Notes under the pieces: generated by a model
Databases searched by the model: none
What the model saw: only the letters and a program-made list of their open reading frames with translations
What the model was told of the DNA's origin: nothing
Shown here: positions 1,444 to 16,224 of the stretch, in pieces
How positions within the stretch are numbered: position 1 is the stretch's first letter
How the letters are laid out: each line of letters starts with the position of its first letter
Translations under genes and position numbers: made by a program
Origin: an uncultured virus (IMG/VR IMGVR_UViG_3300022660_000072)
Taxonomy: Duplodnaviria; Heunggongvirae; Uroviricota; Caudoviricetes
Length of the DNA: 20,000 nucleotides
Direction: 5' to 3' (one strand)
IMG/VR virus record: IMGVR_UViG_3300022660_000072

Positions 1444-1602
1444 ATGATAAGATTAGTTGACACATGTTTCGGCGTATTCAAGGTAGAGAACGGAACAGCC
1501 ACATCATTGAAAGATGACCAGTTTTACTACAATATCCCCAATGGTATGAGGGATGAAGACATACAGGCTTACTTTGAGCTCCTAATGGAGTATGAAGCCT
1601 AG
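1444..1602 (+). CDS. Small hypothetical protein (52 aa, MIRLVDTCFGVFKVENGTATSLKDDQFYYNIPNGMRDEDIQAYFELLMEYEA); not in ORF track
   Basis: Hand-translated; start context TAAGTTATG matches the recurrent initiation motif. Confidence 0.8.
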   Translation: MIRLVDTCFGVFKVENGTATSLKDDQFYYNIPNGMRDEDIQAYFELLMEYEA

Positions 1603-1641
1603 GTTTTATAGATTTATATTTTTATAGAAAAAAGTAGAGTT

Positions 1642-2037
1642 ATGAAATTGATTTATTTGGTAGATGGAGTTGATAAAGGCATGTTTTCCGGAGAAGAAAA
1701 GGAAGGTATCTTCTTACAGAGGCTTGTCTTTGAATTCCAGTCTGGAAGAAATGATGGATACTTCATATCCAAAGTCCATGAAAAAGAGTACCAAGAATGG
1801 TATAAGAACCTTCCCGAAGAAAACGTATGCTATTGCACCTTCGATAGGTTGTACAATAAGACTATCAAGTATGACAAGCAGAAGACCTTGTTTCTCCTGG
1901 CTTACAGCTTTGAGAACAGCTTCCAAGGAAGTTCGGGTTATGTAAAGTTCAGCAGTAAGAGAATGCAGAGGCTTTACCTGGCATGGGTTGATGAAAGAAA
2001 TCGAAAGATGGAGGTTTTGTACAGGTCCAAAAAGTAA
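1642..2037 (+). CDS. Hypothetical phage protein (131 aa)
   Basis: ORF track; start context AAAGTAGAGTTATG. Confidence 0.8.
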   Translation: MKLIYLVDGVDKGMFSGEEKEGIFLQRLVFEFQSGRNDGYFISKVHEKEYQEWYKNLPEENVCYCTFDRLYNKTIKYDKQKTLFLLAYSFENSFQGSSGYVKFSSKRMQRLYLAWVDERNRKMEVLYRSKK

Positions 2038-2963: not shown

Positions 2964-3560
2964 ATGGAAAAGAAGTCGAAGTTGTTTGACGACATGATGT
3001 CAGAGTACAGAAAAAAGGAGACTCACGAACTAGCCGGCATCCTAGGAGTGGAGATGAAGAAGTACCAAACGCTTCCATTGGAGGCAATCATAGGCAATGT
3101 ATCTCCAACCCAACAGCCAGTTGTAAAGGCCGCTATTGGTCTTTATGAAAGATTAAGAGTCTACAATCAACCTGCTCCAATAAGGGGAGTAGAAGATGTT
3201 GTCCCTATACTCAGATCAGTTCTGGCAGGGCGCGAGGAGTACAGAGACGAGGTGTGGTGTATCACTTTAGACAGAATGCATTGTATCAAGAGCATTGATG
3301 CATGCTTCTTCGGAAAGTTCGAATTTTCAAGATTTGCCCCAATGTACATCTGCAAGAATGTGATTGAAAACAAAGGAGAAGCTGCCATATTAGCACAAAG
3401 TTGTAAGGATGAAGACCTGCTTCCAAGTAGGGATGTGATAGATAAGGTCAGAAGTGTGAAGAATGCATTGAGTTCAGTTGGCATTGCTCTTACAGACCAT
3501 GTGATGGTTACGAATGAAGGCGTGTGCTACTCGTTCGCAGAAGAAAAGTGTTTCAAGTAA
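2964..3560 (+). CDS. RadC-like JAB/MPN-domain protein with degenerate metal-binding site
   Basis: RadC-like features: EVWCITLD, AAIL..., LLPSRD, ALSSVGIALTDHVMV...YSFAE. The expected HNHPSG reads AQSCKD. Confidence 0.85.
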   Translation: MEKKSKLFDDMMSEYRKKETHELAGILGVEMKKYQTLPLEAIIGNVSPTQQPVVKAAIGLYERLRVYNQPAPIRGVEDVVPILRSVLAGREEYRDEVWCITLDRMHCIKSIDACFFGKFEFSRFAPMYICKNVIENKGEAAILAQSCKDEDLLPSRDVIDKVRSVKNALSSVGIALTDHVMVTNEGVCYSFAEEKCFK

Positions 3561-3571
3561 GTCAATAAGAT

Positions 3572-3817
3572 ATGGTAGACATTGCAATTTTGGATTACAG
3601 CGTAAGTGAAGTGATACTTCTGAAAGCTGACGAAAAGATTGTTGAACGTGACTTCAACAACGATGTTGCAGCATTTATTCAGGCACCTATAAGTCAAGGA
3701 GGGCTTGGTTTTGATCTTGATAGCTGCTATTACATGTGCAGTGAGAAGATAAGAGTTATCTGTCCGTTCGGAAGCCCAGAAGGTGGAATGGAGATTGGCT
3801 GTGATTCAACTCACTAG
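3572..3817 (+). CDS. Hypothetical phage protein (81 aa)
   Basis: ORF track; preceded by AGTAAGT (3556-3562). Confidence 0.75.
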   Translation: MVDIAILDYSVSEVILLKADEKIVERDFNNDVAAFIQAPISQGGLGFDLDSCYYMCSEKIRVICPFGSPEGGMEIGCDSTH

Positions 3818-3994
3818 TAGTCAGGTGGTTATGACGGCTGTGAAGGTCCCCAGGCTTTCTCAGTTTGCTCATATAAAAAGGGATTCAAGTGCAAGAGTAG
3901 CAATAAGTTGTGTGATGTATGGCACGTGTTTTGTCTTTTGCGATGTTGAGTTCGTTAATCTATATGAAGGCGTTGGTAGAGGAGTTTTCTTGTC

Positions 3995-4030
3995 AGGGTA
4001 GGGACGGATAGTCCCCACCCTTTTTGTTTG
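3995..4030 (+). terminator. Intrinsic terminator
   Basis: GGGTAGGGAC-GGATA-GTCCCCACCC stem (one mismatch) followed by TTTTTGTTTG. Confidence 0.85.
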
Positions 4031-4084
4031 TCATTCAGAACGTAGCTGAGACCAATGTAAAAACTTGTTAAATCATTGAAAAAT

Positions 4085-4135
4085 AATGTTTTACAATGGC
4101 TCGTTGAAAAACATTTATGCGTACCTTTACATTAG
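4085..4135 (+). promoter_or_regulatory. Putative early promoter (TACCTTTACAT) with upstream inverted repeat
   Basis: ATGCGTACCTTTACATTAG at 4117-4135. IR AATGTTTTACAA (4085-4096) / TTGAAAAACATT (4104-4115), 11/12 match. Directly downstream of a terminator. Confidence 0.7.
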
Positions 4136-4145
4136 CTAAAAGAAA

Positions 4146-4156
4146 GTTCTTTGAAA
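4146..4156 (+). promoter_or_regulatory. boxA-like antitermination element GTTCTTTGAAA
   Basis: Resembles the Nus boxA consensus (GYTCTTTRAMA); about 10 nt downstream of the putative promoter. Confidence 0.5.
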
Positions 4157-4162
4157 AGCTGG

Positions 4163-4193
4163 AAAAAAGAAAGCCTCTCCCAAGGGAAGAGGC
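4163..4193 (-). terminator. Intrinsic terminator on the minus strand
   Basis: GCCTCTCC/GGAAGAGGC stem (4173-4193), followed on the minus strand by TTTCTTTTTT (4172-4163). Confidence 0.7.
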
Positions 4194-4249
4194 GAGGTAG
4201 TGGAGGAACGCCTTAAGAATTTGTCCTCCGGAACTTAATCTTCGCTGTT

Positions 4250-4309
4250 ATGAGAATAAGAATCTCTATCAGACTTGGCAGATGGACATTTGTAGTTACT
4301 AACTACTAG
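4250..4309 (+). CDS. 19-aa basic/hydrophobic peptide MRIRISIRLGRWTFVVTNY (candidate type I toxin or leader peptide); not in ORF track
   Basis: Hand-translated; GTTATG start context as in other genes; buried in nested stems. Confidence 0.6.
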   Translation: MRIRISIRLGRWTFVVTNY

Positions 4310-4376
4310 TGCCAAGGGCGAGGGGTCAGTTTCCGGCTCTCCCCTCGCTGAAGATTAAGATTTCATTCTCCAGCCC

Positions 4377-4386
4377 TGCAAAGATA
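4377..4386 (-). promoter_or_regulatory. Bacteroidetes -7 promoter element TATCTTTGCA, firing leftward
   Basis: Plus strand TGCAAAGATA gives TAnnTTTG on the minus strand; intergenic; no clear -33 TTTG. Confidence 0.65.
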
Positions 4387-4403
4387 GTAAAAAAGTAAGT
4401 TGT

Positions 4404-4583
4404 ATGAAGAAAGTTAGAAGAATCCCACGTGAAAGAATCCCTGCGTTTATTGCATATGCCCTTGTTGCCGTTTGTGTGATTGGTGGCTTCACAGCAGGAA
4501 AGCACTGTTTGTTTACCGGAGGAGCGATGTACATCATTGGAATGATTCTCGATCCGAAGTCAGACCTTTATAGAAAGGACTAA
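4404..4583 (+). CDS. Small membrane protein (59 aa, MKKVRRIPRERIPAFIAYALVAVCVIGGFTAGKHCLFTGGAMYIIGMILDPKSDLYRKD); not in ORF track
   Basis: Hand-translated; AGTAAGT at 4394-4400; basic N-terminus and two hydrophobic segments; stop 3 nt before the next ATG. Confidence 0.8.
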   Translation: MKKVRRIPRERIPAFIAYALVAVCVIGGFTAGKHCLFTGGAMYIIGMILDPKSDLYRKD

Positions 4584-4586
4584 GCC

Positions 4587-4871
4587 ATGAATGAGAAGCT
4601 GTTGAGTAAGATTCTTACCCCAAGAATCAACAGGTGGAAGATGTTGAATGAAAAGGGCAGGAGAATCGAAGCCAAGATAGAGATAGCAAGGTACTTCGCC
4701 CTTAACATAGATGGCAAGCCTTTCGAAGAAGTCTATAAGGAGCTACAAGGTGCTCAAAAGCAAGGTGCATACATTATCTCCACCGAACTGTTCCTAGACA
4801 ATATTATGCTTTCTAAGTTGAGCTATGAATGGGGAGACGAAGTTTACCACATGATGAAAGAATGTATTTAG
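4587..4871 (+). CDS. Hypothetical phage protein (94 aa)
   Basis: ORF track; tight packing. Confidence 0.75.
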   Translation: MNEKLLSKILTPRINRWKMLNEKGRRIEAKIEIARYFALNIDGKPFEEVYKELQGAQKQGAYIISTELFLDNIMLSKLSYEWGDEVYHMMKECI

Positions 4872-4895
4872 TATAAACCCAAAACAAAGTAAGTT

Positions 4896-5216
4896 ATGAA
4901 GAAGTTGACATTTGAACAGGTGTACAAAAGGTTCGTTAAGCACAACGAGGAGAAAAAGGTGACAAGCCAGTATTCTGCCTCAAAGTCTAACAGACTAGTA
5001 GGAGTTGTTGTTTTCAAGGAAGATAACTGGCCAGGCAAAGATTACAGCCTAGAGTCAAGGTCCTATCAGTTCGTTAGTGACAACAAGTATTTCATCCCAG
5101 GTCTTGGTGGTAATTCGATTTTCGCTGATTGCATGGATGGTTCAGAGGAAGGAATAAGGCTTGACTTTTACCTCAGTTCTTGGGAGATTGACTACTGTTA
5201 CATAGAAGGAGAGTAA
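4896..5216 (+). CDS. Conserved-looking hypothetical mobile-element protein (YSLESRSY...SDNK...GGNSIF..C.DG)
   Basis: ORF track; AGTAAGTTATG start context. Confidence 0.85.
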   Translation: MKKLTFEQVYKRFVKHNEEKKVTSQYSASKSNRLVGVVVFKEDNWPGKDYSLESRSYQFVSDNKYFIPGLGGNSIFADCMDGSEEGIRLDFYLSSWEIDYCYIEGE

Positions 5217-5219
5217 GGC

Positions 5220-5378
5220 ATGGATAGAGTAAACACGAATCAGCGATTGGTCTCAAGAGAGAGGGCAATCGAAATAACCATGAATGTGAATGGAGTCACA
5301 CGTGGAATGGCAGAAAGGTACACAGACAGTGAGCTGAAAGAAGTATTGAGATTGGTAAGGATGAAGCCGGCATTTTAG
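5220..5378 (+). CDS. Small hypothetical protein (52 aa, MDRVNTNQRLVSRERAIEITMNVNGVTRGMAERYTDSELKEVLRLVRMKPAF); not in ORF track
   Basis: Hand-translated; fills the 5217-5380 gap with 3-nt and 2-nt spacers. Confidence 0.8.
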   Translation: MDRVNTNQRLVSRERAIEITMNVNGVTRGMAERYTDSELKEVLRLVRMKPAF

Positions 5379-5380
5379 TT

Positions 5381-5755
5381 ATGGGAAACAGAGTATATGA
5401 TATGGCGATGGAACTCCTCCAGGAGGAGGCATACGCAATGCATGAGTCATACAACAACGAACAGATAGCAGAGTGTGTTCAGAAGATTGTAGGCAGGTTG
5501 AACAGGCATGGTCACAAGTATTCGCAGACTATCACTGCAGACCTGGGATTGCTCCAGATCAAGGTCAAGAATGCAAGTTCAAGGAACGGAGGCTCGTTCG
5601 TTTCTGTGTCTGATGAGACTGCTACCTATGTGGCGAGGTCACTATCGGAAATCATAGATGTGAGTGTTGTTTGCACCGAAGATGAGGTCAAGGGTCTCAT
5701 AGAAATGATGGATGAAGCTTTCTTTGCATTGAAAGACAGAGACCGGAGTTTTTAG
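5381..5755 (+). CDS. Hypothetical phage protein (124 aa)
   Basis: ORF track; AGTTATG start context. Confidence 0.8.
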   Translation: MGNRVYDMAMELLQEEAYAMHESYNNEQIAECVQKIVGRLNRHGHKYSQTITADLGLLQIKVKNASSRNGGSFVSVSDETATYVARSLSEIIDVSVVCTEDEVKGLIEMMDEAFFALKDRDRSF

Positions 5756-5764
5756 GCAAAGTTA
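5755..5764 (-). promoter_or_regulatory. Bacteroidetes -7 element TAACTTTGCC, firing leftward and divergent from the structural promoter
   Basis: Plus strand GGCAAAGTTA gives TAnnTTTG on the minus strand, at the left edge of the intergenic region. Confidence 0.55.
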
Positions 5765-5832
5765 CCCCATGAAAGTGGCTGTTTTAGCCTAAATAGGTCA
5801 GTAAAAACAAGTTGAGCAATAAAATCTTTTAG

Positions 5833-5861
5833 AAAGTGTTGCATTTTGCAACACTTTTTTT
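5833..5861. promoter_or_regulatory. Perfect 11-bp inverted repeat (operator and/or terminator)
   Basis: AAAGTGTTGCA-TTT-TGCAACACTTT (5833-5857) running into a T tract; overlaps the -33 region of the structural promoter. Confidence 0.75.
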
Positions 5862-5862
5862 A

Positions 5863-5870
5863 TACCTTTG
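5863..5870 (+). promoter_or_regulatory. Bacteroidetes -7 element TACCTTTG for the structural operon
   Basis: Matches TAnnTTTG, with TTG at 5839-5841 (21-nt spacer); about 110 nt upstream of the scaffold ATG. Confidence 0.75.
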
Positions 5871-5902
5871 TCGCAAGCTATTCCAGAAAAGTAGGCTACT
5901 AC

Positions 5903-5977
5903 CTTTCATAACTTACTGGCTAGGGGTCTGCTGTTCTCAAGATAGCAGACCCTATAATAAAAAAAGTAAGTTAAAAG
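5903..5977 (+). promoter_or_regulatory. Structured 5' leader of the structural operon, sequestering the scaffold initiation region
   Basis: Inner stem GGGTCTGCT (5924-5932) / AGCAGACCC (5944-5952). Outer pairing TAACTTACT (5909-5917) / AGTAAGTTA (5965-5973) plus CTTT (5903-5906) / AAAG (5974-5977). Confidence 0.65.
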
Positions 5978-5979
5978 AA

Positions 5980-6663
5980 ATGAAGAACAAGGTATTTACC
6001 AGACTGGAGCCGAAGGCTAAGTCCTACGGATTCAGTAAAGATGAGCTGATGACTGTGTGCGAGTCTATAGCAAATGGTTTCAGTTCCGAAGAGGAAGCCA
6101 CAGATGAAGCAATCGATGCTAGAATCGAAGCTTCTCTGCCATTCTTGAAAATCTCTCAGAGTGCCGCCAATCGGTCTTACGAACGAATGAAGGCGAAATT
6201 CGAAGATGAGAACAAGCCAAAACCAACACCAACACCGCAGCCTGAGCCACCGAAGCCAGCTGACCCACCTGTAGATGAAGCCCCTGCATGGTTCAAAGCT
6301 TTCCAGGAGAAGTACGAATCAGACAAGAAGGCTACCAATGACAGGTTCAATCAGATGAGCCAGGAGAAAGCCAATGAAGGCTTTATGGCTAGTGCTCTCT
6401 CAAGTCTTAAGGATGTCGATCCAAGATTCTACAGAGACCTTAAGGGAAAGACCTTCGAGAAGCAGGAAGATGTCGACACCTATGTCTCAGAAGTAATGAA
6501 TGACTGGACAGAGTTCTGTACAGACAAGAACATCAAGGCTATGGCAGATGTTATCCCTCCAGGAGGTGGTCCAAAGCCAACAAAGCCAAACGAAGGTGTT
6601 GTAGCAAGGGCAGAAGCAAGAAAGGCAGTTGAAACCAAGTCTGCAATAAAGGGTCTAGAGTAA
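5980..6663 (+). CDS. Putative capsid scaffolding protein (227 aa)
   Basis: Likely start ATG 5980 (MKNKVFTRLEPKAKSYGFS); helical and charged with a Pro-rich linker (KPKPTPTPQPEPPKP) and PAWFK motif; position before decoration and capsid genes. Confidence 0.75.
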   Translation: MKNKVFTRLEPKAKSYGFSKDELMTVCESIANGFSSEEEATDEAIDARIEASLPFLKISQSAANRSYERMKAKFEDENKPKPTPTPQPEPPKPADPPVDEAPAWFKAFQEKYESDKKATNDRFNQMSQEKANEGFMASALSSLKDVDPRFYRDLKGKTFEKQEDVDTYVSEVMNDWTEFCTDKNIKAMADVIPPGGGPKPTKPNEGVVARAEARKAVETKSAIKGLE

Positions 6664-6707
6664 TTCTGGAGTAAGGCCCGTAATCAATCAAATAAAAGTA
6701 AGTCCAA

Positions 6708-7271
6708 ATGGAAGTAAAATTCGCTCACACAGAAGCTCCTGCTCCGAAGCCAATCGTCTTCGAGCAGATTTTTGCTGAGAAGCCAGGCGGTGGACTGCTT
6801 GCCAACCACGACTTCGATGTGAAGGAGGGTATGGCTGCCGGTCTTAACGCAGCTGGAAAGTATCAGGTCATCAAGGCACCGATGCTCTATGAGGACGCTA
6901 CAGCAGAAGCCACAACCATCAAGGTTAAGAAGGGTTCAGCAGTAGTATCCGGTGATTTCCTTGCCACAGGCAAGAAGGCCGTAAAGGTCACTAAGGTGGT
7001 TACAACTGATCCAAACTATGATGTGCTTACAATTTCACTCGGAGTTGAAGTAAAGGCCGGACAGGTGCTCTATCAGGCAACCGCAGCAGCCGATGGTTCA
7101 ACAGCAACAGCAGCTCTCTCTGTTGTTCCAGTTTATCTGGTCGGTGATGATGTCCCTGCAAACTCAGGTGACTTCATGGTTAAGCTCGTCAACGGAGCAA
7201 ACATTCGCAAGGAGACAGCACCTGTCGCTGACGAGGTGGTGGCTCAGATGAAAGGAATCTCAAAAGTGTAG
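6708..7271 (+). CDS. Putative head decoration/head fibre protein
   Basis: 187 aa, Ala/Val/Gly/Thr-rich, between scaffold and major capsid. Confidence 0.65.
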   Translation: MEVKFAHTEAPAPKPIVFEQIFAEKPGGGLLANHDFDVKEGMAAGLNAAGKYQVIKAPMLYEDATAEATTIKVKKGSAVVSGDFLATGKKAVKVTKVVTTDPNYDVLTISLGVEVKAGQVLYQATAAADGSTATAALSVVPVYLVGDDVPANSGDFMVKLVNGANIRKETAPVADEVVAQMKGISKV

Positions 7272-7277
7272 TGTAGT

Positions 7278-8402
7278 ATGGGTACAATGAACAAACCACT
7301 GATGGACATCGACCAGCCTAGTCTTCAGGCTGAGGTCGATTCGTATGTTCCAGGTAACGGATTTGCCTGGAGAGACCTTTTCCCACTCCGATACACCCCT
7401 AAGTTTGACCTTAAGGGAATCGAAGGTAAGGAGGGTATTCCTATCTCTGCCGACAGAGTTGCATTCAACACTAAGGCACCTCTCAAGAGCAGAAAGACAA
7501 TCGGCTCATGGAGTGGTACTCTTGAGAAGATTGCAATCTCTAGGGAGAAAGACGAAATCGAAATCAATGAGTACAACGACCTTAAGCGTATCGCTGCTGC
7601 AGCTGATACAGACAAGGCTGCAAAGCAGTATCTCGTTGACATGATTTACGATGACGTAGAGTTCTGTAACAATGGTATGGATGCAAGAGTTGAGCTTGAT
7701 GCCATGCGTATCGCTTCTCACGGAGTAAAGACCTACACTAAGGAGGTTGACGGTGAGAACGCAACAGAGGACATCATCAACTTCAACGTACCGAAGGAGA
7801 ATTTCCACGGAACAGCAGTGAAGTGGTCTGACCCTACAGCCGATGGTCTCGGTGACATCATGAAGATGGTAAGAGCTCTCAAGAAGGCTGGCAAGAAGGC
7901 TCCTGCTTACGCATTCATGGAGCAGCAGGCTTTCGACTACCTCTGCGCACAGGAGAAGACTGCAAAGAGACTGTTCACAGCAGCAGCTCTCAAGAACGAC
8001 ATGATCTTCACAGCAGAGCGTGTTACCCTTGAGAACATCAACAACTACCTCTCAAGCAAGGGCATGCCTAGAATCGCTATCCTTGACACTTGGGTTACTA
8101 TCCAGGCGAAGGACGGAAGCGAGACTACAGTTAAGCCTTGGGCTGAGAACGTTGTTGTACTCTCTCTTACTGCACAGCTCGGTTGGACATGGTACAAGAC
8201 TGTTCCGCAGGTTCCTAACACAGAAGCCCTCCAGGCTTACGGTGGATTCTATAAGACCACAAGGTACTCAGAGGTTAACCCTATGCTTGAGGTGACAATG
8301 GCAGAGGCATACGTGCAGCCTGCCCTTATCAATCGCTCAAGCTTGATGTTCCTCAATACTGAGAACTCTGAGTGGGCTAACGGAGAAGTAGCAAAAGCCT
8401 AA
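7278..8402 (+). CDS. Major capsid protein (lambda gpE-like family)
   Basis: 374 aa; WRDLFPLRYT, ADRVAFNTKAPLKSR and C-terminal EVTMAEAYVQPAL motifs; biased, high-expression codon usage; synteny. Confidence 0.9.
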   Translation: MGTMNKPLMDIDQPSLQAEVDSYVPGNGFAWRDLFPLRYTPKFDLKGIEGKEGIPISADRVAFNTKAPLKSRKTIGSWSGTLEKIAISREKDEIEINEYNDLKRIAAAADTDKAAKQYLVDMIYDDVEFCNNGMDARVELDAMRIASHGVKTYTKEVDGENATEDIINFNVPKENFHGTAVKWSDPTADGLGDIMKMVRALKKAGKKAPAYAFMEQQAFDYLCAQEKTAKRLFTAAALKNDMIFTAERVTLENINNYLSSKGMPRIAILDTWVTIQAKDGSETTVKPWAENVVVLSLTAQLGWTWYKTVPQVPNTEALQAYGGFYKTTRYSEVNPMLEVTMAEAYVQPALINRSSLMFLNTENSEWANGEVAKA

Positions 8403-11260: not shown

Positions 11261-14200
11261 ATGGCAGGTTTGGAGTTTCATATCACAGCAGACAATAGAG
11301 ACTTTCTCAACAAGGTTCGTCAGGTGCAGGATAAGGTTTCTGAGACCACGAAGAAAGTAGAGAAAGAAGGCAATGAAATGGAGGCTATCTTCAAGAAGCT
11401 TGGAAGTGGGATAGCTTCACTTGGAGCAGGATTCACTGCTACCAAGCTGATTTCTGATATAGTAAGAGTAAGAGGCGAATACCAGCAGCTAGGTATTGCA
11501 ATGGAGACAATGCTTGGAAGCCAGGAGAAGGCTGATGCTCTTATGGCACAGTTGACAGCAACCGCAGCAAAGACTCCATTCGGTCTTTCTGATATAGCAC
11601 ATGGAGCAAAACAGCTCCTTGCTTATGGTACAGCATCGGAGGAAGTAAACGAAACCCTTGTAAGGCTTGGAAACATCGCTTCCGGACTGTCGATTCCGTT
11701 GAATGACCTTGTGTACCTTTATGGCACAACTATGACACAGGGTCGTCTGTTTACGCAGGATTTGAGGCAGTTCATGGGTCGTGGTATTCCATTGGCTGAT
11801 GAGCTTGCAAAGCAGTTCGGTGTCACCAAGGATAAAATTGGTGAGCTTGTTACAGAAGGTAAGGTTGGCTTCCCTGAAGTTGAGAAGGCTATCCACGCAA
11901 TGACCAACGAAGGAGGTAAGTTCTACAACCTCATGGAGAAGCAGTCAAGCTCTCTCACCGGTCAGATAAGCAACCTTGAGGATGCCTGGGACATGATGCT
12001 GAATGAGATTGGTACCAAGACGCAAGGTCTTGCATCTGGTGCAATTCAGACAGCTTCCACCCTCATAGATAACTACGAAAAGGTAGGTCGCATCATAGTT
12101 GAGATAGCAGGTGTTTATGGAACCTATAGAGCAGCGCTTGTAGCAACTACAGCTGTTCAGAAGGTTCACACTATGGTAATGGAGAGAGCTGCTGTTGAGA
12201 TTGGTATTGTAGCAGCACAGCATCATAACCTCACCATACAGCAGGCTAAAGCTGCAGCAGCTACAAAGCTTCTCACTGAAGCAAAGAAGAAGCTTCTCAC
12301 TACCATGAAGGGTCTTGGCAAAGCCTTGACCAATCCTTATGTACTTGCAGCAGCAGCTGTAACTGCACTAGGTTTCGGTATCTACAAGCTCATTACATAT
12401 CAGACTGAGGCAGAGAAGGCACAGAAACGATTGAACGATGCTTTCTCTGAGGCATCTGCTTCTGCCGGTTCGGAGATCAAGAAGCTTGATGAACTCAAAG
12501 GCAGATTGTCTGCTGCCAAGAAAGGTTCTGCAGAATACTACGAAATCAAGGATGAGATTGTCAAGAACTTCGGTAAGTACGATTCAACTCTTGCTGATGA
12601 GATAGAGAGAGTTGGAGACCTTTCTACAAAGTACGATGTCCTTGCAAAGGCTATACAGGATTCAGCTAACGCAAGGATGTACGACAAGTATGTAGAGGAG
12701 GAGACCGAGAGATATGACAAGGATGTCACTGGTAAGCTCAAGAAGCTCCAGGAGACTATCTACGGAGCCAAAGGCATAAGCACAGAAGATGCAGCTCGCA
12801 CGTATTCGAAGATATGGAAGAACATCTTCCAGGGCGAAGCTCTTGACCAGGAGACTGAGAATGTCATCAAGAGTTTCGACAAGGTGCTCAAGGGAACTGA
12901 TAACACTGGCAAGAAGTTCACAGCCATTCAGAATCCTATCCGTGACTACATAGCTGACCTCAATGACCTGAATGTTCAGCAGGATGAGTTCATCAACAAT
13001 GCTAGAACCATGTTTGGTTTTGGTGCTGATACATCCGACTTCAATAAAGGTCTGAAGACTCTGACTGAGGAGCAGTTGAATCAGACAAAGAAGGATCTTG
13101 CCGAAATCCTCAGTAAGTTCAAGGAGACAAAGCAGGAGCAGGATTATTCGCTTGTTTCCGGAGAGGACATCACATTCGCTACAGAGCAGCAGATTACTGA
13201 TGCCATAGCCAACGTGGACTCATTCCTTGCTCAGATTAAGGCTAACAGAGACAAGAATAAGCCAAAGGAAGAAGAATATGAGGAAAATGCCATCAAGAAG
13301 GCACAGCAGACAGCAGAGAAGGTCGCTGAGGCTTCAAGAAAGGCAGAGTATGACCTTAAGAAGGCTCAGACAGACGATGAAATAAAGCTCATAGAACTTG
13401 AGAGAGACGAGAAGATTGATGCTCTCAATGATGAGCTTGAGGCATACAAGGCTATCTACGAAGCAGCCGGTAAGGATACCAAGGAGCTTGAGGAAAGTTT
13501 CGCAAGAATGGTAGAGGTTGAAAAGCAGATGGCTGATATCGAAATCAACGAAGCCAACAAGGAAAAGAGTGATAAGATCAAGGAAGAACTGCAGGACCTT
13601 CTGAAAGAGTTTGAGACCTATCAGCAGGCTGTCACTCGTATAGAGAAGGAATACGATGAGAAGCGTAAGAAGATGTACGAGGAAGACGGAAAGACTTTCA
13701 AGGCTGGATTCGACGATGATAATGTCAGAGAACTTGAACGCCAGAAGAAGGAAGCCATTGAGGAGGTAGCTGAGAACTACGCAGATAAGAGTGATGCTTT
13801 CGAATCATGGGCTGACTCGTTATCTTCTATAGCTATTACAGAGCTGAATAAGATGTTGGCTCTTGCAAAGGCTAGACTTTCTATTCTAAAGAATACAGAA
13901 GGTGTTGACGAACTTGAGATAGCACAGGCAGAGGCTGCAATCGAATCGCTTGAAACAGCCATATCTAATTCGAACGACACCACTAAGGAAAGCAAGGCAA
14001 ACTGGACTGAACTGTCAAAAGTAATTAACGATGCAGGTTCAGTGTTCGGAGAACTAGGAGATGTCATCCCAGGAGTAGCCGGAGAAGTTCTTGCTGGAGT
14101 AGGCGGAATTGCCAGTGCGGCTGTTGGTATGGCAAATGGCATCAAGACTATTGGAGAGGCTGCTTCTGCTGCAGAAAAGGCTTCTGCAGTGCTTGCTGTA

Positions 14201-15409
14201 ATCTCTGCAGCAATCAAGGTTGTTCAGTTCTTTACAAATGCAGCAGAGGAGAATAAGCAGGCTTACCTAGCATCAGCAAAAGCAGCAGACGAATATAGAA
14301 GAGCTCTGGAAGAATTGACTGATCAGAAACTCAAGGAGAAGTATGATACAGCTTTCGGAAACGATGCACTCGGAGAATTCATAGAAAAGTCAGAAGGAGC
14401 AAAGAAGAAGCTTGATGAGCTGAAAGAGTCTCTTGGAAGTATGTCGACATTCGACTACACTGACTATTACATGGACATGTTCTCAGACAGGTCTTGGGCT
14501 TCATTGAGTAAGAAAGTAAGAGACAAGCTTGATGAGATAATGGCTCAAGGTGATACAGCCCTTGTTTCAGACATGAGAAGCACTTGGCAGAAGTATTGGG
14601 GAAGTGGTGTTGAAAATATCCATGTTGCCAATCTTTCGGACTTTATAGATGAATCCGGTGCACTTGATACAGAAGGTCTCAAAGCATGGTTGGATTCGTA
14701 TGGAGAAGGTCTGTCTGACGAGACTCGCCAGACTGTAGAAAGCATGATAGCTGATTGGGAGGCTTACGGTGAGACAGTGGCAGAGATAAATGACTATGTC
14801 AAGTCTCTGTTCGGTACAATGTCTTCCACTGTAGCAGACAGCATGATTGATTCCTGGATAGAGACCGGCAATGCTATTGCTAATGCCAAGGATGTTCTAG
14901 GAGACTATGCAAAGGCTATGGCAAAGGCTGTTATTGAATCCAAGTTGCTTGAAAGCATCTTCACAGATGAAGCAGCACAGCAGATGGCAGATTTGGTTGC
15001 TGTTGGTGATACTGAAGGTGCTCTCTCAATACTTGCAGGTCTTCTTGAGCAGGCGAACGAGCTTGCTCCTCATATCAACGATTACCTGGCAGGTGTAGAC
15101 GAGGTGACTGGTGGAGCACTCTCAGGAGAGGATGAAGGTGGTCCCGATAGAGAACCTTCAAAGAAAGGAATCGCAACCGCATCGCAGGAGAGCGTTGATG
15201 AAAACAACGCAAGGCTGACAGCAATACAGAGTCACACATACTCCATCAATGAGGAGTGCAAGAAGAATGGAGCATACAGCGCACAAATCATATCAAGGCT
15301 TACGGCGATTGAAAGGAATACGGCATACCTCTCTACCATTTCGACAAACATCGCAGCAATAAGCAGTGATATAGAGGTAATAAAGAACAGAGGAGTGACA
15401 ATGCTATGA
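11261..15409 (+). CDS. Tape measure protein (1382 aa)
   Basis: N-terminal tape-measure domain (AAKTPF...GAKQLLAYG...DLRQFMGRGIP...GQISNLED); long Ala/Lys/Glu-rich helical body with hydrophobic segments. Confidence 0.95.
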   Translation: MAGLEFHITADNRDFLNKVRQVQDKVSETTKKVEKEGNEMEAIFKKLGSGIASLGAGFTATKLISDIVRVRGEYQQLGIAMETMLGSQEKADALMAQLTATAAKTPFGLSDIAHGAKQLLAYGTASEEVNETLVRLGNIASGLSIPLNDLVYLYGTTMTQGRLFTQDLRQFMGRGIPLADELAKQFGVTKDKIGELVTEGKVGFPEVEKAIHAMTNEGGKFYNLMEKQSSSLTGQISNLEDAWDMMLNEIGTKTQGLASGAIQTASTLIDNYEKVGRIIVEIAGVYGTYRAALVATTAVQKVHTMVMERAAVEIGIVAAQHHNLTIQQAKAAAATKLLTEAKKKLLTTMKGLGKALTNPYVLAAAAVTALGFGIYKLITYQTEAEKAQKRLNDAFSEASASAGSEIKKLDELKGRLSAAKKGSAEYYEIKDEIVKNFGKYDSTLADEIERVGDLSTKYDVLAKAIQDSANARMYDKYVEEETERYDKDVTGKLKKLQETIYGAKGISTEDAARTYSKIWKNIFQGEALDQETENVIKSFDKVLKGTDNTGKKFTAIQNPIRDYIADLNDLNVQQDEFINNARTMFGFGADTSDFNKGLKTLTEEQLNQTKKDLAEILSKFKETKQEQDYSLVSGEDITFATEQQITDAIANVDSFLAQIKANRDKNKPKEEEYEENAIKKAQQTAEKVAEASRKAEYDLKKAQTDDEIKLIELERDEKIDALNDELEAYKAIYEAAGKDTKELEESFARMVEVEKQMADIEINEANKEKSDKIKEELQDLLKEFETYQQAVTRIEKEYDEKRKKMYEEDGKTFKAGFDDDNVRELERQKKEAIEEVAENYADKSDAFESWADSLSSIAITELNKMLALAKARLSILKNTEGVDELEIAQAEAAIESLETAISNSNDTTKESKANWTELSKVINDAGSVFGELGDVIPGVAGEVLAGVGGIASAAVGMANGIKTIGEAASAAEKASAVLAVISAAIKVVQFFTNAAEENKQAYLASAKAADEYRRALEELTDQKLKEKYDTAFGNDALGEFIEKSEGAKKKLDELKESLGSMSTFDYTDYYMDMFSDRSWASLSKKVRDKLDEIMAQGDTALVSDMRSTWQKYWGSGVENIHVANLSDFIDESGALDTEGLKAWLDSYGEGLSDETRQTVESMIADWEAYGETVAEINDYVKSLFGTMSSTVADSMIDSWIETGNAIANAKDVLGDYAKAMAKAVIESKLLESIFTDEAAQQMADLVAVGDTEGALSILAGLLEQANELAPHINDYLAGVDEVTGGALSGEDEGGPDREPSKKGIATASQESVDENNARLTAIQSHTYSINEECKKNGAYSAQIISRLTAIERNTAYLSTISTNIAAISSDIEVIKNRGVTML

Positions 15410-16224
15410 TAACAGGAAAGGTACTCATAGATGGAGTGGACATCAAGTCCACTTACGGAGCATACATAGTCGATGGAGGCTATGATGATGTTCCTGCCTT
15501 CTCTGAAATGAAGGCTCCGGAAAAGAACGAATGGTTCGAGAGCAATGATGTAGAGGTTGACTTGTCTTCTCCATGTGTTGAAAGCCATAATATGTCGTTC
15601 AGATTCATGATGAAAGGAACGATGGATATGCTTCAATCGTTCGTTGACTTCATAATGTCCAAGAGAACCCATGCTGTAGAAATGGTAGACATCGAAAGGA
15701 CACGCACTCTCAGAGTTTTCGATGTAGGAGCAAGCAGGATTTGCTCAATCTGCAACATTAAGGTTGACATGTATGATGATGATCCAAGAGTAGGACTTGT
15801 TTACGTGGAGCCTTCATCCTCTGGGAAGTTGGTTGGATTATCGCTTGACGGAGTGGATGTTTCCAAGTACGGATGTCTGCTTTCAGGAAGTATAGATGGT
15901 CTGTTCCCGGACATCAGAATGAAGGAAAATAAGCTTGAGGAGTCAGACTACAGTGATGGCCAGGAACATTCGAACGAGTCAGGCATTTATGTTGAAAGGG
16001 GCGATGTGAGATTTAGGCTGATTATGAGGTCTGATGACAAGGCTGACTTCTGGAATAAACGTGATGCACTGTTCTTGAACCTCACGAAAGAAGGAGAAAG
16101 GACAATATCATGGAAAGGCAGAGATACAAAGGTCTATTACAAGAGTTGCAACTCTGTAGACTTTGATTACTCAGGTAGAAGCTGGTGGGAGTTTGAATTG
16201 ACATTCGGATGCATAGGAGAATAA
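15406..16224 (+). CDS. Putative distal tail protein (272 aa, internally duplicated)
   Basis: Follows the tape measure with ATGA overlap; two repeats starting GKVLIDGVDIKSTYG and GLSLDGVDVSKYG. Confidence 0.7.
   Translation: MITGKVLIDGVDIKSTYGAYIVDGGYDDVPAFSEMKAPEKNEWFESNDVEVDLSSPCVESHNMSFRFMMKGTMDMLQSFVDFIMSKRTHAVEMVDIERTRTLRVFDVGASRICSICNIKVDMYDDDPRVGLVYVEPSSSGKLVGLSLDGVDVSKYGCLLSGSIDGLFPDIRMKENKLEESDYSDGQEHSNESGIYVERGDVRFRLIMRSDDKADFWNKRDALFLNLTKEGERTISWKGRDTKVYYKSCNSVDFDYSGRSWWEFELTFGCIGE

Follow-up and report, generated by a model that had tools for sequence, protein, structure and literature searches.

A candidate type I toxin-antitoxin-like cassette with a cationic, non-helical peptide in a phage and in Bacteroidales genomes

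The ibs/sib loci of Escherichia coli carry a toxin open reading frame (ORF) of about 19 codons, which a structured cis-antisense RNA (110-150 nt) overlaps over its whole length, and the Ibs peptides are almost wholly hydrophobic. Convergent promoters and a leader ORF overlapped by an antisense RNA are also found in the antisense-controlled leaders CopA/CopT-tap of plasmid R1 and prgQ/Anti-Q of pCF10. Here we analyze an element located at positions 4132-4378 of a 20,000-nucleotide stretch of DNA (the window) from an uncultured virus (IMG/VR IMGVR_UViG_3300022660_000072), whose sense RNA is predicted to fold around a 19-codon ORF and to be covered by an antisense RNA. From comparative sequence analysis we assign a probability of about one half to the reading that this element is a type I toxin-antitoxin (TA)-like cassette with a non-helical peptide, portable among Bacteroidales mobile elements. 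In our working classification it was filed, with similar confidence, as type I-like and not as a member of any known family.

The section of PMC8594479 dealing with type I toxin mRNAs counts two features among their key determinants, namely long-distance pairing of the 5' end with the 3' end and an occluded start region. The element resembles hok/sok and AapA1/IsoA1 in having a small ORF within an mRNA closed by such 5'-3' pairing, a start codon in a helix and a (predicted) antisense RNA on the opposite strand, as well as in its carriage by mobile elements and in the occurrence of present, absent and decayed copies. In contrast to both systems, in which the antisense RNA covers only the leader, the predicted antisense RNA spans the whole ORF, and the element has no sense terminator of its own, no transmembrane helix and no sequence or Rfam similarity to them; its host phylum would moreover be the Bacteroidota, in which translation works without Shine-Dalgarno (SD) pairing (PMC7366714), so that no SD/anti-SD logic applies. 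With ibs/sib it shares an ORF of about 19 codons that is fully overlapped by the predicted cis-antisense RNA, but its peptide is cationic with alternating residues, and the Sib family of Rfam was not matched.

Within the phylum, cis-antisense pairs with candidate small ORFs of Bacteroides thetaiotaomicron have been called "reminiscent of type-I TA systems" in the portion of Ryan et al. 2020 (PMC7366714) devoted to them. They resemble the predicted layout of the element in being cis-antisense and in their small ORFs, but they are divergently encoded genes, each of which has a candidate small ORF, as described in that same portion (PMC7366714), and the motifs IRFSI, RLGRW, SIRVG and WKLK were absent from nine text-searchable supplementary files of that transcriptome paper. 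A 2025 abstract (PMC12390103) lists type I TA systems as established only in Proteobacteria, Firmicutes and Tenericutes, and for Bacteroides the corresponding part of PMC7366714 offers only unvalidated sense/antisense pairs. No description of this cassette family was found in the literature that we searched.

The structured sense RNA and its homologues

The sense (+) strand of the locus is predicted to give a structured RNA (4134-4388) that would form the 5' leader of an operon and contains the small ORF. Its minimum free energy (MFE) was -90.0 kcal/mol, compared with a mean of -66.9 for shuffled sequences (z -4.53), and that of the minus strand was -91.7 kcal/mol, compared with -63.7 (z -6.06); on either strand 0 of 200 shuffles were as good. 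The fold consists of two nested multi-helix junctions. The helices P0 (TCTTTG 4148-4153/CAAAGA 4379-4384) and P1 (GCTGGA 4158-4163/TCCAGC 4369-4374) join the ends, their 5' halves lying within 4148-4163 and their 3' halves within 4369-4384, and enclose hairpin A (GCCTCT/AGAGGC, 4173-4193), hairpin B (GGAGGA/TCCTCC, 4202-4229) and the C domain (4230-4364). In this domain a long-range stem C of 10-14 bp (4230-4243/4350-4364), with the core CTTAATCTTC (4234-4243)/GAAGATTAAG (4350-4359), surrounds a four-way junction made of C1 (4245-4272), C2 (4274-4316, with the stems CTTGGCA 4274-4280/TGCCAAG 4310-4316 and GTAGTT/AACTAC 4292-4306) and C3 (4317-4349, with the stem GCGAGGGG/CCCCTCGC at 4318-4348). 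An earlier reading of the window made from its sequence alone (the sequence-only reading) had proposed a toxin-antitoxin-like cassette here, and all of the stems that it listed were located where it had placed them, as were its ORF at 4250-4309, which translates to MRIRISIRLGRWTFVVTNY, and its minus-strand box and hairpin with a U-tract.

Seven copies of the element were accepted: that of the window, one in a metagenome contig (L087), and five in Bacteroidales genomes (L144, L145, L146, L147 and L183). Contigs of four public sequencing runs that aligned to the region contained diverged variants, in which hairpin A was swapped for a different G+C-rich hairpin with the preceding A-run (a U-run on the minus strand) retained, and GTAGTT/AACTAC had become ATAGTT/AACTAT, a compensatory change. 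L087, about 72% identical to the window over 3484-4414, was the sole true match in metagenome contigs to a pattern built from these run variants. A covariance model (CM) of two sequences revealed L144 in genome G569 (1 of 151 genomes). A second model, of three sequences, matched 2 of 59 genomes in the genus of G569, adding L145, 4 of 151 genomes at the family level at E <=0.05, adding L146 and L147, and 2 of 151 genomes at the order level, adding L183; the genera of G504 and G466 yielded no new copy (one of two and one of four genomes matching, respectively). The genome samples overlap, and non-detection in the other genomes searched does not show absence. One of the four family-level matches (L148, CM score 20.8 bits) was not accepted, since it is a tandem-repeat hairpin that lacks the ORF. 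In the window itself the CM matches extended over 4146-4388.

Independent MFE folds of L087, L144, L146, L147 and L183 had an identical order of helices, and the sequences of stem C were unrelated between copies (CUUAAUCUUC/GAAGAUUAAG, UUUUGGCUUUCG/CGGAAGCUAAAG, GAACCAUUU/AAAUGGUUU, AAACCGGUU/AAUCGGUUU and GAAAAGCCGAAA/UUUCGGCUUUUC). A hairpin equivalent to B, of other sequence, was present in L087, L144, L145 and L183. In a CM-fitted alignment of six sequences, standard pairs occupied 90.0% of the cells, compared with 70.7% in shuffles (0 of 500 reached the observed value), and both sides had changed in 32 of 54 pairs, compared with 15.2 in shuffles; when the partner was slid by 1-3 columns, only 40-52% were paired. 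Stem C had changed on both sides in 10 of 11 pairs with 97.8% of its cells paired, and C3 in 7 of 8 pairs. A MAFFT alignment of the C domain was discarded for its poor registration.

G-U pairs favored the + strand, which was more stable than the minus strand in five of the seven copies by 6-16 kcal/mol (L087, -87.1 versus -75.1; L144, -92.6 versus -76.1; L146, -91.4 versus -81.7; L147, -69.2 versus -62.8; L183, -117.5 versus -107.6). The two strands were about equally stable in the window, and only in the decayed copy L145 was the minus strand the more stable one. Similarly, a two-sequence consensus reached -56.8 kcal/mol with 54 pairs on the + strand and -38.5 kcal/mol with 37 pairs, stem C being lost, on the minus strand. 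These comparative data indicate that the fold is a real RNA structure, mainly of the + strand, and the strand bias of its stability favors a structure of the sense RNA and disfavors a cruciform of duplex DNA. The nested long-range fold proposed in the sequence-only reading, which had suggested covariation analysis as a check, was thereby recovered with covariation in the homologues. A search against Rfam 15 gave no match at the gathering score in the window and only chance-level matches at E up to 10 for the window region and L087; the element is a structured RNA family without an Rfam match.

The small ORF and the predicted antisense unit

The small ORF of the window (4250-4309, +) comprises 19 codons, its start codon lying inside C1 and its stop codon just 5' of the 3' arm of C2. 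All seven copies have an ORF at this structural position, and its length of 19-26 codons is within the size of typical type I toxins (<60 amino acids). In addition to the window peptide given above, the encoded peptides are MKIRFTIRLGRWKIVVTNY (L087), MEIQFSIRVGKLKLTVTLAF (L144), MEIIFSIRVSR*KVIVIMTF (L145), MEIRFSVKVWKLKVTVIINL (L146), MKLTISVRIWKLKIKFEVEL (L147) and MVTSKTISFAFFWGLIRFRIRKTYKK (L183). Over codons 2-17 of the six forms of 19-20 codons, the pairwise differences at codon positions 1, 2 and 3 amounted to 97, 69 and 134, and the variable columns to 13, 8 and 16 of 16; in a column permutation, the excess at position 3 had a p value of 0.008 and the deficit at position 2 one of 0.015. 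Since RNA pairing has no reason to track the codon phase, this periodicity argues for coding, and judging from it the small ORF is very probably a translated gene. The pattern of hydrophobic (h) and polar (p) residues hphphphph, turn, hphp was retained in all five intact forms of 19-20 residues, which fits a cationic peptide of two amphipathic strands joined at a G/W-K/R turn, i.e. a β-hairpin with a hydrophobic face and a cationic face, the shape that the sequence-only reading had suggested. The alternation of basic and hydrophobic residues pointed out in the sequence-only reading is, accordingly, a conserved property of the homologues, and the ORF is conserved as a coding sequence.

The L183 copy (genome G055, 1501-1728, minus strand) encodes a 26-residue variant that shares the core IRF(S/R)IR. 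This peptide alone has a hydrophobic N-terminal stretch of about 10 residues followed by a basic tail, and the copy has in addition an extra junction hairpin; the family may hold more than one type of peptide. When a hidden Markov model (HMM) of the peptide was searched against 401 Bacteroidales genomes, only G569 was clear; none of the 29 weak loci had a CM match, and L151, L152 and L155 were judged on inspection to be chance. The extended L087 frame had no match in a protein database search. Another frame of 27 codons (MRTFTLAKRKFFEKLEKRKPLPREEAR) at 4117-4200 resembles a frame of L087 over its first 15 or so codons, with two synonymous Leu changes. It is unlikely to be a gene, as neither the start nor the stop is conserved and the frame extends over both the predicted promoter and the fold's 5' end.

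The phage that carries the window is likely to infect a member of the Bacteroidota, because its capsid protein is closest, among cultured phages, to those of a Porphyromonas phage (30% identity) and a Riemerella phage (27%), because the stretch 3000-6000 occurs in animal-gut and bovine-gut metagenome runs (12 of the 24 runs listed contain at least half of its words), and because the homologues of the element come from genomes sampled in the family of a metagenome-assembled genome titled Prevotella sp. With such a host, promoters are to be read as TAnnTTTG at -7 and translation as proceeding without SD pairing, in agreement with what the pertinent parts of PMC7366714 report for the primary sigma factor and for translation in this phylum.

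On the minus strand, the -7 box TATCTTTG of a putative antisense promoter (4379-4386) agrees with TAnnTTTG, and this consensus was found exactly and at the same position, at the 3' margin of the sense fold, in all seven copies, nn being TC, TC, CC, CC, TA, AT and TA. TAnnTTTG occurs 9 times in the window (11.9 expected), so that a single match is unremarkable and the weight of the box comes from its conservation in the homologues. The terminator scan identified hairpin A, read as 4193-4173, and the U-run TTTCTTTTTT that follows it as an intrinsic terminator (4163-4193, minus strand). A G+C-rich hairpin with an immediately adjoining U-run on the opposite strand was found in six of the seven copies, L147 having no such site by the criterion used, and a terminator hairpin of other sequence with a U-run was found also in the metagenome variants X13 and X20. 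From copy to copy the hairpin changes in sequence but the U-run persists, as is characteristic of terminators. The box and the terminator define a predicted antisense RNA of about 209 nt (4164-4376, minus strand), complementary to the whole ORF and to most of the sense fold; in the different copies its predicted length is 183-223 nt and the whole ORF would be covered. The putative antisense unit that had been recognized in the window alone recurs, with both box and terminator, in six of the seven copies, and an antisense RNA would be made from it.

As for the sense promoter, the block at 4055-4131 (+) was kept in the metagenome variants and in L087, and it includes a near-consensus Bacteroidota -7 box, TACCTTTA (4122-4129). 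The + promoter had earlier been placed at 4117-4135; the terminator/promoter scan gave an overlapping site, TTGAAA-18-TACATT, at 4104-4133. An exact sense TAnnTTTG precedes the fold in three of the seven copies (L146, L147 and L183), the box of the window and L087 reads TAyCTTTA, and in L144 and L145 the element follows an upstream ORF with no recognizable sense box. An intrinsic terminator (3987-4025, +; stem 4001-4015 plus a T-run in the scan, with the longer stem GGGTAGGGAC/GTCCCCACCC) closes the upstream + unit, and L087 has a terminator of other sequence at the same place. The AT-rich block TTAAATCATTGAAAAATAATGTTTTACAATGG (4058-4099) of the promoter region had matches of 32-39 nt with 85-94% identity in three genomes (L141-L143) of the 401 from Bacteroidales, in each case a short distance before the start of a gene. 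The block may represent a promoter or regulatory motif common to them, or the similarity may be due simply to low complexity. Operator palindromes considered at 4052-4115 were dropped, as they are not conserved in L087.

A mobile module and its possible functions

In a natural variant that lacks the element (a contig of run X13), position 4131 is joined directly to CAAAGATA (4379), exactly 4132-4378 being missing. The element is, in this sense, an insertion/deletion polymorphism between the promoter block and a gene for a 59-residue protein (4404-4583, +). The ends of the polymorphism (4131/4132 and 4378/4379) have neither repeats nor a target duplication. At the element-less junction, TACCTTTACA joined to CAAAGATA, a sense -7-like box and the antisense -7 box stand almost back to back as an imperfect palindrome, and the boxes flanking L183 are exact inverted copies of each other (TATATTTG ... 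CAAATATA); the unit that moves may extend from promoter to promoter. In every homologue the next gene downstream has the same orientation as the element, but these genes differ, coding for probable small membrane proteins in the case of the window and L087 and for an LPD29-domain protein in L146. The 59-residue protein, which would be encoded on the same sense transcript, has two hydrophobic segments and no Pfam or PHROG match and is, judged by eye, probably a membrane protein; the gene has a good start context, its L087 homologue scoring 8.6, near the 75th percentile of phage genes.

The L146 copy adjoins genes for LPD29 and DpnD/PcfM domain proteins at a contig end, beside ordinary chromosomal genes, and L144 closes a 4-kb block of genes without Pfam matches, situated between proline-synthesis genes and a hybrid two-component system. 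L145 is a decayed copy: codon 12 is TAG, stem C contains two mismatches, and Ns are present in the locus as well. This element stands about 170 nt downstream of an apparent tRNA 3' end (1300-1350; T-arm and acceptor ending CCGACCA), which is followed by a strong hairpin; the 3' ends of tRNAs are typical integration sites of mobile elements. The insertion/deletion polymorphism, the mobile-gene neighbors, the decayed copy and the varied downstream genes indicate that the element behaves as a self-contained mobile module.

In the mechanism that we propose, the promoter at about 4104-4133 would start a sense RNA that would fold at once into the closed structure, and with its AUG in helix C1 and in a poor initiation context the ORF would be translated at a low level. 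The convergent TAnnTTTG promoter (4386-4379) would give rise to an antisense RNA of about 200 nt ending at hairpin A and the U-run, which might block translation or destabilize the sense RNA, and the peptide would harm the cell once the antisense RNA is lost. A type I-like cassette is suggested by the tiny conserved ORF, the mRNA closed from 5' to 3', the buried start, the predicted overlapping antisense unit, the mobile carriage and the absent or decayed copies. With regard to the occlusion of translation by the mRNA fold, as treated in the part of PMC8594479 cited above, the closure by P0 and P1 and stem C are conserved, and the AUG lies in C1.

Several observations weigh against this assignment. 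No sense terminator-like site was found within the element plus 60 nt in five of the seven copies, so that the sense RNA would run into the next gene, which is atypical of type I toxin mRNAs, and a discrete toxin mRNA with its own 3' terminator would be lacking in these five. According to the section of PMC8309996 that surveys the toxins, membrane type I toxins all have an α-helical transmembrane domain and only RalR and SymE are cytosolic; in the peptide described here residues alternate, and the longest hydrophobic run in the window peptide is of three residues, too short for a transmembrane helix. The architecture put forward in the sequence-only reading was, in short, supported by the comparative tests, and it departs from classical type I loci in having no sense terminator of its own and no transmembrane helix. 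No Rfam covariance model of Sok, Sib or other known antitoxin or toxin-mRNA families was matched. The ORF has a poor start context: its score of -2.7 falls short of the 5th percentile for 85 genes of the phage, only 4 A occur in the 20 bases upstream of the start (median of phage genes, 9), and the AUG lies inside a helix, which can be counted against coding; low, gated translation is needed by a toxin gene, yet it is also expected of a non-gene. Between the window and L087 alone, the bias to conservative replacements had a p value of 0.11 with the substitution sites fixed and of 0.003 with the sites free. Fitting the covariation alignment to the model inflates pairing, and shuffles may be beaten by six related sequences even without structure, a concern that the slid controls and the independent folds answer in part. 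The variant without the element retains the antisense -7 box as well, there adjoining the -7-like box of the sense strand, and the CAAA of the antisense box is the 3' arm of helix P0; both facts provide a second possible cause for the conservation of the box. Finally, the sole RNA run that contains the phage (X18) covers only 5276-5801, with contigs that carry no strand information, and the uncovered parts are uninformative.

The same-strand gene directly 3' of every copy, the different nature of these genes and the absence of a sense terminator before them in five of seven copies would also be expected if the element were a switch on an operon leader, operated by antisense RNA pairing or by polymerase collision from the convergent promoter, with the ORF specifying a leader or regulatory peptide. 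In the phage, the element follows the terminator and the conserved promoter block and heads a + unit of at least 15 kb that includes the scaffold, capsid and tail genes. Such a switch would be similar to CopT-tap and prgQ, in which a mobile-element operon likewise begins with convergent promoters separated by about 200-250 bp, a small leader ORF and an antisense RNA that overlaps it. We consider it rather unlikely, although it is the main rival. Unlike in those leaders, the residue pattern of the peptide is constrained and is conserved where the nucleotides are not, which a pure leader peptide would not need. CopT-tap-like leader ORFs are coupled to, or overlap, the next start, but here the stop at 4309 is 95 nt before the start at 4404 and this start is unpaired in the MFE fold, so no coupling or sequestration is visible. 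The natural variant moreover has the same downstream region without the element, and no + strand terminator is available for attenuation. The antisense-controlled leader of genes 4404-5755 that the sequence-only reading had offered as its alternative is likewise a serious contender.

The codon constraint could also be explained by a small protein gene of non-toxic function, e.g. an accessory or anti-defense peptide encoded on a stable folded RNA whose level is tuned by the antisense RNA, and the location among phage accessory genes (RadC, DUF2958, ADP-ribosylglycohydrolase and PcfK/PcfJ) and beside the PcfM and LPD29 genes of L146 suits such a peptide. We regard this as improbable, because a full antisense unit and a closed mRNA are an unusually heavy repression for a harmless product; the premature stop of L145 fits the loss of a costly gene, though it is expected of any remnant. 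That both strands fold well, that the element is polymorphic for presence and that it is associated with mobile elements could point instead to a noncoding RNA or to a structure acting at the DNA level, such as a single-strand origin or promoter, a packaging site or a miniature inverted-repeat transposable element (MITE), with an incidental ORF. This is the least probable explanation, in view of the codon periodicity and the conserved residue pattern, of the G-U pairs that make the structure strand-specific in five of seven copies and so disfavor a cruciform of duplex DNA, of the single copy in the phage genome, and of the lack of terminal inverted repeats or target duplication at the ends of the polymorphism; nor does the 62-kb genome encode a reverse transcriptase, a transposase or a TnpB-like protein. 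Among more specific identities, a MITE or insertion element was rejected on the same copy number and end features and on its absence from 46 related phage records; a group I intron, because the 5' exon would end in A instead of U, no Rfam match was obtained and the element is located in a leader, not in a gene; and a retron, a diversity-generating retroelement or an omega-RNA, because the genome has no reverse transcriptase or TnpB/IscB.

Returning to the type I-like cassette, a bolder version of this reading would make the element the founding type I TA family of Bacteroidota and their phages. Its toxin would be a new class, a cationic amphipathic β-hairpin of 19-20 residues; its mRNA would be doubly closed by two nested four-way junctions; its overlapping antisense RNA would come from a convergent sigma-ABfr promoter; and it would move, promoter to promoter, between phages and conjugative elements. 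We put this version forward only tentatively, at less than even odds.

Genomic setting and significance

The window corresponds to bases 122-20121, reverse strand, of a 62,328-bp IMG/VR record rated "complete" by CheckV, whose gene content is that of a temperate siphophage. The genes include a tyrosine integrase with Arm-DNA-bind_5 and SAM_5 domains, a terminase, an SPP1-type portal and a MuF-like protein fused to an ADP-ribosyltransferase domain; the latter is followed by many small accessory genes, which include those named above, and then by the scaffold, capsid, tape measure and tail genes. No other intergenic gap of the phage is as large as the one in which the element sits (3818-4403), and no tRNA or tmRNA was found in the window. 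Gene starts in this phage are A-rich from -14 to -4, followed by G at -3 (65%), T at -2 (55%) and T at -1 (65%), and show no SD motif. Upstream of the window, in the coordinates of locus L059 of the same phage, 5593-7314 (minus strand) encodes the MuF-like minor head protein with its C-terminal ADP-ribosyltransferase domain (PF03496), and 4468-5235 (minus strand), two genes after it, an ADP-ribosylglycohydrolase (PF03747); these two products could be an ejected effector and its antidote. A cluster at 11266-15875 (minus strand) of L059, coding for a TET-associated glycosyltransferase (PF20691) and for ParB_N, PIG-L deacetylase-like and MgsA_C proteins, suggests a DNA base hypermodification module.

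Searches for further relatives with individual sequences and patterns were negative within their scope. The element was not matched by blastn or nhmmer in 57 IMG/VR loci found via the capsid protein, in which the neighboring genes were not conserved either, and the full records of 46 of these gave only chance matches of 14-27 nt. No match was obtained with blastn of 4000-4420 against cultured phages or of 4050-4410 against plasmids, and BLAST of 3570-4600 against the 401 Bacteroidales genomes did not find the element. Relatives sought in viral contigs through a 106-residue protein, a RadC-like protein and an alignment of an 81-residue protein were not confirmed. Pattern scans of viral contigs gave 25 loci for a palindromic stem pattern, none of them homologous by nhmmer, and no match for the other three patterns; scans of genome contigs gave no match, and a later one with an 18-mer gave 45, about the number estimated by hand for chance and none homologous.

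With its seven members, covariation-supported fold, predicted antisense RNA and distinctive peptide, which is unlike any described type I toxin, the cassette is a testable type I candidate in the dominant gut phylum. If the peptide is toxic, it would add a β-hairpin class to a field of helical membrane toxins and two cytosolic nucleases, and it would show how a start codon is occluded without SD pairing. If the element is a switch instead, it would be a portable regulator that acts through convergent promoters on operons of phages and conjugative elements of gut Bacteroidales. Under the toxin and the switch reading alike, it represents a new structured RNA family not contained in Rfam.

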